64,000 bases of DNA from Escherichia coli (GCF_013315695.1 NZ_CP054353.1), one strand, 5' to 3'. Shown: positions 56,257 through 56,487, counted from the first letter of the stretch. A program made the numbers and translations. The notes: generated by a model from the sequence alone, not told the origin.

Positions 56257-56487
56257 CGCCAACCTCTCAGCTGGCGTGGTTGGAGTCCCAGTCTGACGAC
56301 GAAGTTACCAACTAGGCGGTATCAACTTTTGGGGGGCCGCCTCTAAATCCCCAAAACCTTGAAATCTGCGTAAAACATAACGTTGAAAACGTTTAAATTC
56401 AATAAATTTTTCTGTGAATCGGGGCGTCTATATCCGCCCCTCTTAAGTTTAGCTTCACTTCCCCTGGGGATGCTTCACCGTATTGCC

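Follow-up and report, generated by a model that had tools for sequence, protein, structure and literature searches.

What occupies a spacer of about 230 bp that separates two convergent prophage genes and is crowded with palindromes? The spacer lies in a P88-like prophage (Xuanwuvirus, P2-family) of Escherichia coli, within a 64,000-nucleotide stretch of DNA that we analysed as a whole and refer to as the window. A preliminary description of the sequence considered its inverted repeats to be more than bidirectional termination requires, and suggested that they might mark a small RNA, binding sites or a recombination junction. We think it likely that the spacer is a small mosaic transcription unit, in which an RNA related to the core of the lambda 6S RNA has moved together with a DUF3800 gene from a lambdoid background into the cargo slot of a P2-family prophage.

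Genes flanking the spacer

The genes needed to follow the argument are these:

52088-53842, plus strand, terminase
53842-54891, plus strand, portal
55450-56256, plus strand, DUF3800 gene (268 aa), cargo that converges on the RNA described below
56488-56799, minus strand, parR (Plasmid_stab_B; Pfam PF10784, E 1e-23)
56804-57763, minus strand, parM
57840-60713, minus strand, gpA-like replication gene

The DUF3800 gene ends at 56256 and parR at 56488, so the two are convergent, as previously described, and the spacer covers 56257-56487 (231 bp). The DUF3800 protein matches Pfam PF12686 (E 3.5e-10), the PADLOC candidate profile PDC-M04A (E 2.6e-35) and PHROG 3732 (unknown function). No NCBIfam model matched it, a sequence search for a relative of solved structure gave none, and no paper on PDC-M04 was found in the literature. 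DUF3800 has an RNase H-like fold and is known as a retron-linked domain or effector (PMC10910872, PMC7736814). Compared with a homolog from another P2-family phage (locus L016), identity at the three codon positions is 82/88/46%, which indicates purifying selection on the protein, and the DE and QxxD motifs are invariant among the homologs compared. On these sequence matches, the gene is a candidate defence gene carried as cargo.

Two 36-nt direct repeats (57792-57827 and 57865-57900), 83% identical and each built on the palindrome ACGGGATTT-n-AAATCCCGT, lie upstream of parM and straddle the 3' terminus of the replication gene (at 57840). They are likely to be a parC centromere or ParR operator.

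Palindrome density

The inverted repeats in and around the spacer are as follows:

56257-56276, cgccaacc/agctggcg, inside the spacer, newly recorded here
56279-56283/56308-56312, gttgg/ccaac, inside the spacer, newly recorded here
56314-56319/56337-56342, aggcgg/ccgcct, inside the spacer, newly recorded here
56327-56334/56349-56356, ttttgggg/ccccaaaa, inside the spacer, described previously
56379-56384 and 56388-56393, two aacgtt palindromes, inside the spacer, described previously
56421-56426/56435-56440, ggggcg/cgcccc, inside the spacer, described previously
56461-56469, cccctgggg, inside the spacer, described previously
56488-56493/56497-56502, ttattc/gaataa, outside the spacer (parR stop and last codons), described previously
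56556-56562/56583-56589, gtgacac/gtgtcac, outside the spacer (well within the parR coding sequence), described previously

Six repeats had thus been claimed for the spacer, four of which do lie within 56257-56487, while ttattc/gaataa and gtgacac/gtgtcac belong to parR. The unusual density itself is real. Counting perfect arms of at least 6 nt with loops of at most 20 nt, we found 5 inverted repeats in the spacer, against 0.98 +/- 1.0 in 500 dinucleotide shuffles, only 3 of which reached 5. This places the spacer in the top 1.6% of 231-nt segments of the 64 kb. The excess is confined to the left half, which has 3 inverted repeats where 0.38 are expected (3/500 shuffles); the right half has 2 against 0.56 expected (57/500 shuffles), which is not significant.

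For the most part, the palindromes correspond to helices of a structured RNA on the minus strand, which is conserved and about 115 nt long: ttttgggg/ccccaaaa is helix P1, aggcgg/ccgcct a candidate pseudoknot, gttgg/ccaac hairpin P2, and cgccaacc/agctggcg hairpin P3. Folding energies are unremarkable (z = -1.4 on the plus strand, -2.4 on the minus strand and -0.7 for the RNA alone, which folds no better than its shuffles). Minimum free energy is uninformative here; the strong evidence for the RNA is comparative rather than thermodynamic.

Homology to lambda 6S RNA

Lambda 6S RNA was sequenced in 1971. It is made in lysogens, is bound by Hfq and appears as bands of ~194 and 121 nt. No function is assigned to it (PMC7547250; bioRxiv 10.1101/2024.10.31.621285), and these papers treat it as a by-product of late-gene antitermination. 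BLAST of the window against lambda gives 81% identity over 64 nt (lambda 44646-44709), and other lambdoid phages match too. The lambda match falls inside the 6S RNA, which extends from the pR' start (AACGAT at 44587) to its end at tR' (U-run at +193). The small RNA proposed from the palindromes thus has a counterpart in the 6S or pR' leader RNA of lambda, to which the left half of the spacer is homologous and whose structure is supported by covariation (see below).

We collected 138 copies of the RNA (66 distinct cores) from viral contigs, via a conserved 20-mer, and from DUF3800-linked loci. The covariance model R1, built on 40 relatives including lambda, has one match only in the window, on the minus strand (115.6 bits, E 6e-32). 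Lambda itself scores 99.7 bits, and the model has 66 matches in 67 sources and none in phage P88. The elements of the RNA in the window are:

56246-56361, minus strand, lambda 6S-core RNA (P1, candidate pseudoknot, P2, P3 and U-run), found by covariance model and BLAST
56327-56356, minus strand, helix P1, in which UUUUGGGG (56356..56349) pairs with CCCCAAAA (56334..56327)
56315-56341, minus strand, candidate pseudoknot, GGCGG in the P1 loop (56341..56337) with CCGCC 3' of P1 (56319..56315)
56279-56312, minus strand, long hairpin P2, with an outer helix GUUGG/CCAAC, conserved internal loops and a variable apical stem
56246-56276, minus strand, hairpin P3 and U-run, CGCCAGCU-GAGA-GGUUGGCG (56276..56257) followed by CUAUUUUUUAC

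The interval 56262-56360 also matches ~380 other E. coli genomes at 77-86% identity. We inspected the surroundings of three of these matches (loci L003-L005), each of which is in a lambdoid prophage, just downstream of the antiterminator gene Q; in L004, a DUF3800 gene lies between Q and a holin gene, in the same convergent arrangement as in the window. On viral contigs, a Q gene is upstream on the same strand in 106 of 137 elements. Lambdoid phages whose Q genes and promoters are unrelated share the RNA core. The element is absent from P88 and from most P88-like prophages. Two P88-like phages (L050:887-1213 and L138:8687-9016) have the RNA without DUF3800. They share the parMR and replication module but have a different portal, followed by an Ogr/Delta-like zinc-finger gene, on which the 6S-like RNA converges instead of on DUF3800, and P3 has no U-run there.

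A search of Rfam 15 at E up to 10 gave no meaningful match in either strand of the spacer or in the lambda 6S region, and the Rfam DUF3800 motifs had no match at E up to 10 on either strand of 54800-57000 or 56200-56520. Two other identities were considered and rejected: GGTTGGAGTCC resembles a T-arm, but ARAGORN found neither tRNA nor tmRNA genes in the window; and a GAGGCGG heptamer recalls the P2 cohesive end, but the 19-nt P2 cos has no match in the window at up to 3 mismatches.

RNA structure

The most telling helix is P1, whose sequence differs wholly among lineages while its pairing is always kept. There are at least six unrelated types of 7-11 bp each:

Lambda, UGGUAGUGAG/CUUACUACCG
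Window, UUUUGGG/CCCAAAA
Other relatives, GGUAACAAG/CUUGUUAUC, GUUGGUGGUU/AGCCACCAAC, UUCAGGGU/ACCUUGAA and GGUGGUGAGA/UCUCACCACC

In an alignment of 59 distinct sequences, which was fitted to the model and so favours the structure, 93.9% of cells pair, against 25-53% when the partners are slid. Thirteen pairs are changed on both sides, namely 7 of the 8 P1 pairs, 5 of the 8 P3 pairs and one at the apex of P2. The pairing of the six P1 types is independent of this alignment. Covariation therefore supports P1 and P3.

P3 consists of 8 bp closed by a loop that is always GNRA (GAGA or GUGA). The outer helix of P2 is invariant in the main set of sequences and one apical pair covaries (UA/AU/GC); in a divergent subgroup of the RNA (L172 type), the outer helix becomes GUUCG/CGAAC, a compensatory change. 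The P1 loop carries the strongly conserved AGAGGCGGC, and CCGCC follows downstream, which gives the topology of a pseudoknot. Its two arms are essentially invariant across the 59 sequences (99% paired); as they do not covary, topology and conservation are what suggest this pairing, and we regard it as a candidate. P2 and P3 contain invariant G-U pairs, which would be A-C on the opposite strand, and the RNA strand is thus the minus strand of the window.

Predicted promoter and terminators

Three further elements complete the spacer:

56374-56402, minus strand, candidate sigma-70 promoter of the RNA, with -35 TTGAAT (56402..56397), a 17-nt spacer and -10 TATGTT (56379..56374)
56421-56450, plus strand, terminator-like hairpin GGGGCG-N8-CGCCCC (56421-56440) followed by TCTTAAGTTT, from the terminator scan
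56403-56487, no strand assigned, filler present only with this cargo, containing CCCCTGGGG (56461-56469) and two copies of GCTTCAC

The candidate promoter agrees with the consensus at 8 of 12 positions, which is below the threshold of our promoter scan, and both AACGTT palindromes sit within its 17-nt spacer. The distance from its -10 to the pseudoknot arm is 32 nt, within the 24-35 nt at which pR' clusters in Q-linked relatives of the same RNA subtype (for example TTGACT-17-TAGATT in L004 and TTGACA-18-TAGATT in L021), and the closest relatives have TTGAAT or TTGAAG in the matching position. From its position and these parallels, this site is a likely promoter of the RNA, whose start would lie near 56367. 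The promoter-like site (56402..56374, minus strand) would then drive a structured RNA of ~115 nt, roughly from 56367 to 56248.

At the other end, P3 is a hit of the terminator scan on the minus strand, with an 8-bp hairpin containing 5 G-C pairs followed by CTATTTTTTA. On the other strand, this U-run is the reverse of the final DUF3800 codons AAA AAA TAG (Lys-Lys-stop). P3 and the U-run are thus a predicted intrinsic terminator of the RNA, which may be leaky given that the U-run begins 3 nt past the P3 stem. The minus strand has no terminator between the parR stop and P3, which is probably also where parMR transcripts end. Such a terminator would keep minus-strand transcription, whether from the RNA's own promoter or from parMR read-through, from running antisense into DUF3800.

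The plus-strand hairpin has no U-run on the minus strand; as each of the two terminator-like hairpins has a T-run on one side only, neither is bidirectional. The hairpin in the right 85 bp probably ends DUF3800 transcription before parR, in which case the 3' UTR of the DUF3800 mRNA would be fully complementary to the RNA. No other hairpins in the spacer are terminator-like, in line with the earlier impression that there is more here than bidirectional termination needs.

The setting differs from that of lambda. In the window, the gene upstream of the RNA is parR and the one downstream is the convergent DUF3800, so that the RNA is not the leader of a Q-linked late operon. We searched the whole 64 kb for homologs of nine Q proteins and found none. 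With no Q gene in the window, the unit should yield only a short terminated RNA.

Cargo boundaries

The proposal of a recombination junction is borne out at the right end of the spacer. In phage P88, Citrobacter phage Shae_phiSM, Xuanwuvirus P884B11 and the cargo-less E. coli genomes among the matches listed, similarity to the window starts within 1-2 bases of 56488, and thus P88-type backbone homology ends exactly at the parR stop. It resumes only left of 55290, where P88 matches 54800-54958 and 55148-55290, and P88 carries different small genes between the same flanks. The DUF3800 gene and the spacer are therefore swapped-in cargo. Among the 471 E. coli genomes that match the parR side, 37 have the DUF3800 cargo and 434 do not. 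Of 5426 complete E. coli genomes, 37 contain the gene and the entire spacer at 98.5-100% identity, as does phage Chuche. These same genomes, and among phages only Chuche, are also the only matches to 56403-56487, which has no match in the loci of relatives.

P2-like phages have a hotspot of defence genes between gpA and the portal gene gpQ (Rousset et al. 2022, PMC9122126). Our locus resembles it in that the cargo lies between the gpA-parM-parR block and portal, in that the content varies among otherwise similar prophages, and in that the cargo matches a PADLOC candidate profile. It differs in that the right edge in this P88-like lineage is the parR stop codon rather than gpA, and in that the cargo adds a non-coding RNA gene of lambdoid type. 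The module would be native to lambdoid prophages, where DUF3800 and the RNA lie between Q and the lysis genes and the RNA is the late leader. From there it would have moved to the hotspot between the replication gene and portal of a P88-like prophage, where its right junction falls exactly on the parR stop. Judged from abundance only, the transfer would have run from lambdoid to P2-family phages.

Several smaller features of this region deserve mention. Chuche is annotated with a 39-codon hypothetical protein (L001:4284-4403) corresponding to 56383-56502 (plus strand) of the window. We treat it as spurious, because it overlaps the end of parR, is found in near-identical copies only and has no independent support; it is probably a false call over the RNA promoter and the filler. 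Between portal and the cargo, 54959-55147 differs among the window, P88 and Chuche while its flanks are 92-99% identical, and could be a second, small patch of variation close to where cos would be expected. Three TTGTGCA direct repeats with exact 10-bp phasing (ATTGTGCAAATTTGTGCACTATTGTGCAG, 55264-55290) end exactly at 55290, where P88 backbone homology stops and the cargo begins, and could be a protein-binding array or a cos-proximal element. Just past the portal gene, the strong hairpin GGGGCATAAAAAATTTATGCCCC (54915-54945) is probably the terminator of the terminase-portal operon; it also has a sub-threshold match to the Rfam "gyrA RNA" (22 bits, E 0.022).

Linkage to DUF3800 and sequence constraint

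We compared the window with seven DUF3800-linked relatives. Four-fold sites of the DUF3800 genes are only 19-46% identical and hence saturated, whereas identity is 79-89% in the RNA core that abuts the gene and 40-62% in the 60 nt preceding the RNA. The window and L016/L124 represent the nearest protein lineages (74-75% amino acid identity). Both are in P2-family phages, and their RNAs are 87-89% identical; in P3, an A-U pair of one is replaced by G-C in the other, a compensatory difference. This argues, at the sequence level, for constraint on the RNA even where Q is missing; alternatively, the RNA may have been captured independently and recently from lambdoid donors. Within the lineage of the window there is too little variation to reveal constraint, all 37 E. 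coli copies and Chuche being at least 98.5% identical.

Among phage loci of the DUF3800 clade, the RNA directly follows the stop codon in 63 of 70, and 6 of the 7 misses have no flanking DNA. The reverse association is much looser: of the 114 copies of the RNA that the pattern scan gave, only 24 are accompanied by a DUF3800 gene, and ~79%, lambda among them, are not. Five IMG/VR provirus records (L010-L014, with a DUF3800 gene 75-76% identical) end exactly 3 bases past the matched coding region, and the predicted provirus boundary thus cuts between gene and RNA.

We also looked at six chromosomal non-phage DUF3800 homologs (from Ferrimonas, Vibrio, Rheinheimera, Aeromonas, a Pyrinomonadaceae MAG and a metagenome contig), which at 46-64% identity are as divergent as the phage-borne ones. 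None had an R1 match at E <0.5 or near the gene, nor an Rfam DUF3800 motif, which makes an obligatory pairing of RNA and protein unlikely. Most simply, DUF3800 would have been inserted once, long ago, beside P3 of a late leader of the UUUUGGG type, after which gene and RNA were inherited and transferred jointly. Two of the chromosomal homologs have neighbours that fit a defence-island setting for the DUF3800 clade, namely a TIR-domain gene in Vibrio (L218:1635-2330) and a Lamassu LmuB-like gene in Rheinheimera (L219:3566-5536).

Alternative explanations

Could the palindromes be explained without an RNA gene? Ordinary termination, by two standard or bidirectional terminators, would suit the convergent genes and the two terminator-like sites, one per strand. 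However, neither hairpin is bidirectional, and the best-conserved and covarying parts of the element (P1, the pseudoknot arms and P2) are not terminators but parts of a homolog of a known RNA. The outcome that would have returned the spacer to two standard terminators, with nothing else conserved, is thus not what we observe. Protein-binding sites, either operators or the centromere (parC) bound by ParR, would be suggested by the two AACGTT palindromes 9 bp apart in the promoter spacer and by the two GCTTCAC copies, 20 bp apart, that flank CCCCTGGGG. Against this, the spacer holds no ParR-type repeat array; the parC-like 36-nt units lie at 57792-57900, upstream of parM, and have nothing in common with its palindromes, so the earlier suggestion of binding sites finds no support there. 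Furthermore, palindromes in the right half are no denser than expected by chance, relatives share the AACGTT motif only in its part proximal to the -10, and the two-copy repeats are short. We regard both of these explanations as highly improbable.

The remaining alternatives accept the RNA and dispute its role. Perhaps the 6S-like segment is a dead relic that hitch-hiked with DUF3800 and, without Q, at most terminates transcription. The element leads a Q-controlled late operon in most other places (the 106 of 137 noted above) and the window has no Q; the DUF3800 stop abuts P3, so that any transfer of the intact gene brings part of the element along; the near-identity of all cargo copies gives no test within the lineage; and P88 and most P88-like prophages manage without it. 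On the other hand, the entire RNA and its promoter-like site have been kept rather than P3 alone, the RNAs of the window and L016/L124 remain similar despite saturated four-fold sites and show the compensatory P3 change, and L050 and L138 have the RNA by itself. A relic therefore seems unlikely to us, if worth keeping in mind. Less probable still is a functional pair in which the RNA acts as guide, sensor, antitoxin or substrate of the DUF3800 protein. In its favour, 63 of the 64 testable phage loci of the DUF3800 clade have the RNA in the same convergent, abutting geometry, both partners moved together into P2-family phages, and there are parallels in the eleven RNA motifs tied to DUF3800 genes (PMC5737381) and in retron type VII, as well as in the RNase H-like fold and retron-linked effector role of DUF3800 (PMC10910872, PMC7736814). 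Yet most copies of the RNA have no DUF3800 gene, the six non-phage homologs have neither the RNA nor an Rfam DUF3800 motif, no Rfam DUF3800 model matches the window, and the constant geometry fits one ancestral insertion. A mobile transcription unit built on the 6S core remains our preferred explanation.

Comparison with known RNA systems

The RNA in the window resembles lambda 6S RNA in sequence and structure over lambda +26 to +127 (P1, GGCGG/CCGCC, P2 and P3), in its orientation to a sigma-70-type promoter (a candidate in the window) and in its predicted intrinsic terminator end. It differs in that it has no Q or late operon, follows parR and points into the 3' end of DUF3800. It would also end at P3 (~115 nt), whereas the lambda RNA runs ~70 nt further to tR' (194 nt), its 5' leader is ~13 nt shorter, and its promoter and P1 sequences are unrelated to those of lambda.

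The logic of a constitutive late promoter and an immediate terminator is shared with StxS and the short late-promoter RNAs of other lambdoid phages (21, 82, P22 and Stx phages). Such units give a stable short RNA in lysogens that is able to act in trans (PMC7547250). StxS is reported to have no sequence in common with lambda 6S RNA (bioRxiv 10.1101/2024.10.31.621285), and the RNA in the window matched no Rfam family.

Eleven unrelated structured RNA motifs, several of them terminator-ended, adjoin DUF3800 genes on either strand (Weinberg et al., PMC5737381). Our RNA is similar to these motifs (DUF3800-I to -XI, Weinberg et al. 2017; for example RF02969 and RF02968) in being structured, terminator-ended and beside a DUF3800 gene on the opposite strand. 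It differs in that no Rfam model matches it and in that its family is mostly without DUF3800. The link between this RNA and DUF3800 looks positional rather than functional.

Possible function and relevance

The first ~127 nt of lambda 6S RNA hold a structured core of ~100 nt with clear covariation, which has no Rfam family. This core survives outside the late operon, in Q-less P2-family prophages. Judged by sequence, the RNA in the window is homologous to a known one; its setting is new and independent of Q, and it is linked to a candidate defence gene. Tentatively, and with more doubt than confidence, one may ask whether the 6S core (P1, pseudoknot, P2 and GNRA-capped P3) is a phage RNA gene in its own right, acting in trans, and not a by-product of antitermination by Q. 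This would explain the strong constraint after a move, with its own promoter, into Q-less P2-family prophages, as well as its presence with or without DUF3800 and its covariation across many lambdoid lineages. If so, the RNA in the window would also be a perfect antisense of the DUF3800 3' UTR, which would couple it to expression of a defence candidate. The Q-independent copies (the window, L016 and L050) are natural experiments for a function independent of antitermination.

More generally, the locus documents a non-coding RNA gene travelling in defence-hotspot cargo between unrelated phage families. A striking adjacency of DUF3800 and an RNA can stem from insertion history instead of function, which calls for caution with other DUF3800-linked RNA motifs.

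The divergent subgroup of the RNA (L172:3270-3500, L173, L181, L186, L189, L201-L205, L210 and L215), which scores 37-46 bits, shows a further arrangement. Its P1 is shortened to UCAGGG/CCCUGA and overlaps the GGCGG arm, and an intrinsic terminator hairpin separates the RNA from a lambda-like pR' (TTGCAA-16-TAAATT, then AACGATGGG), so that the RNA would be made only after read-through.
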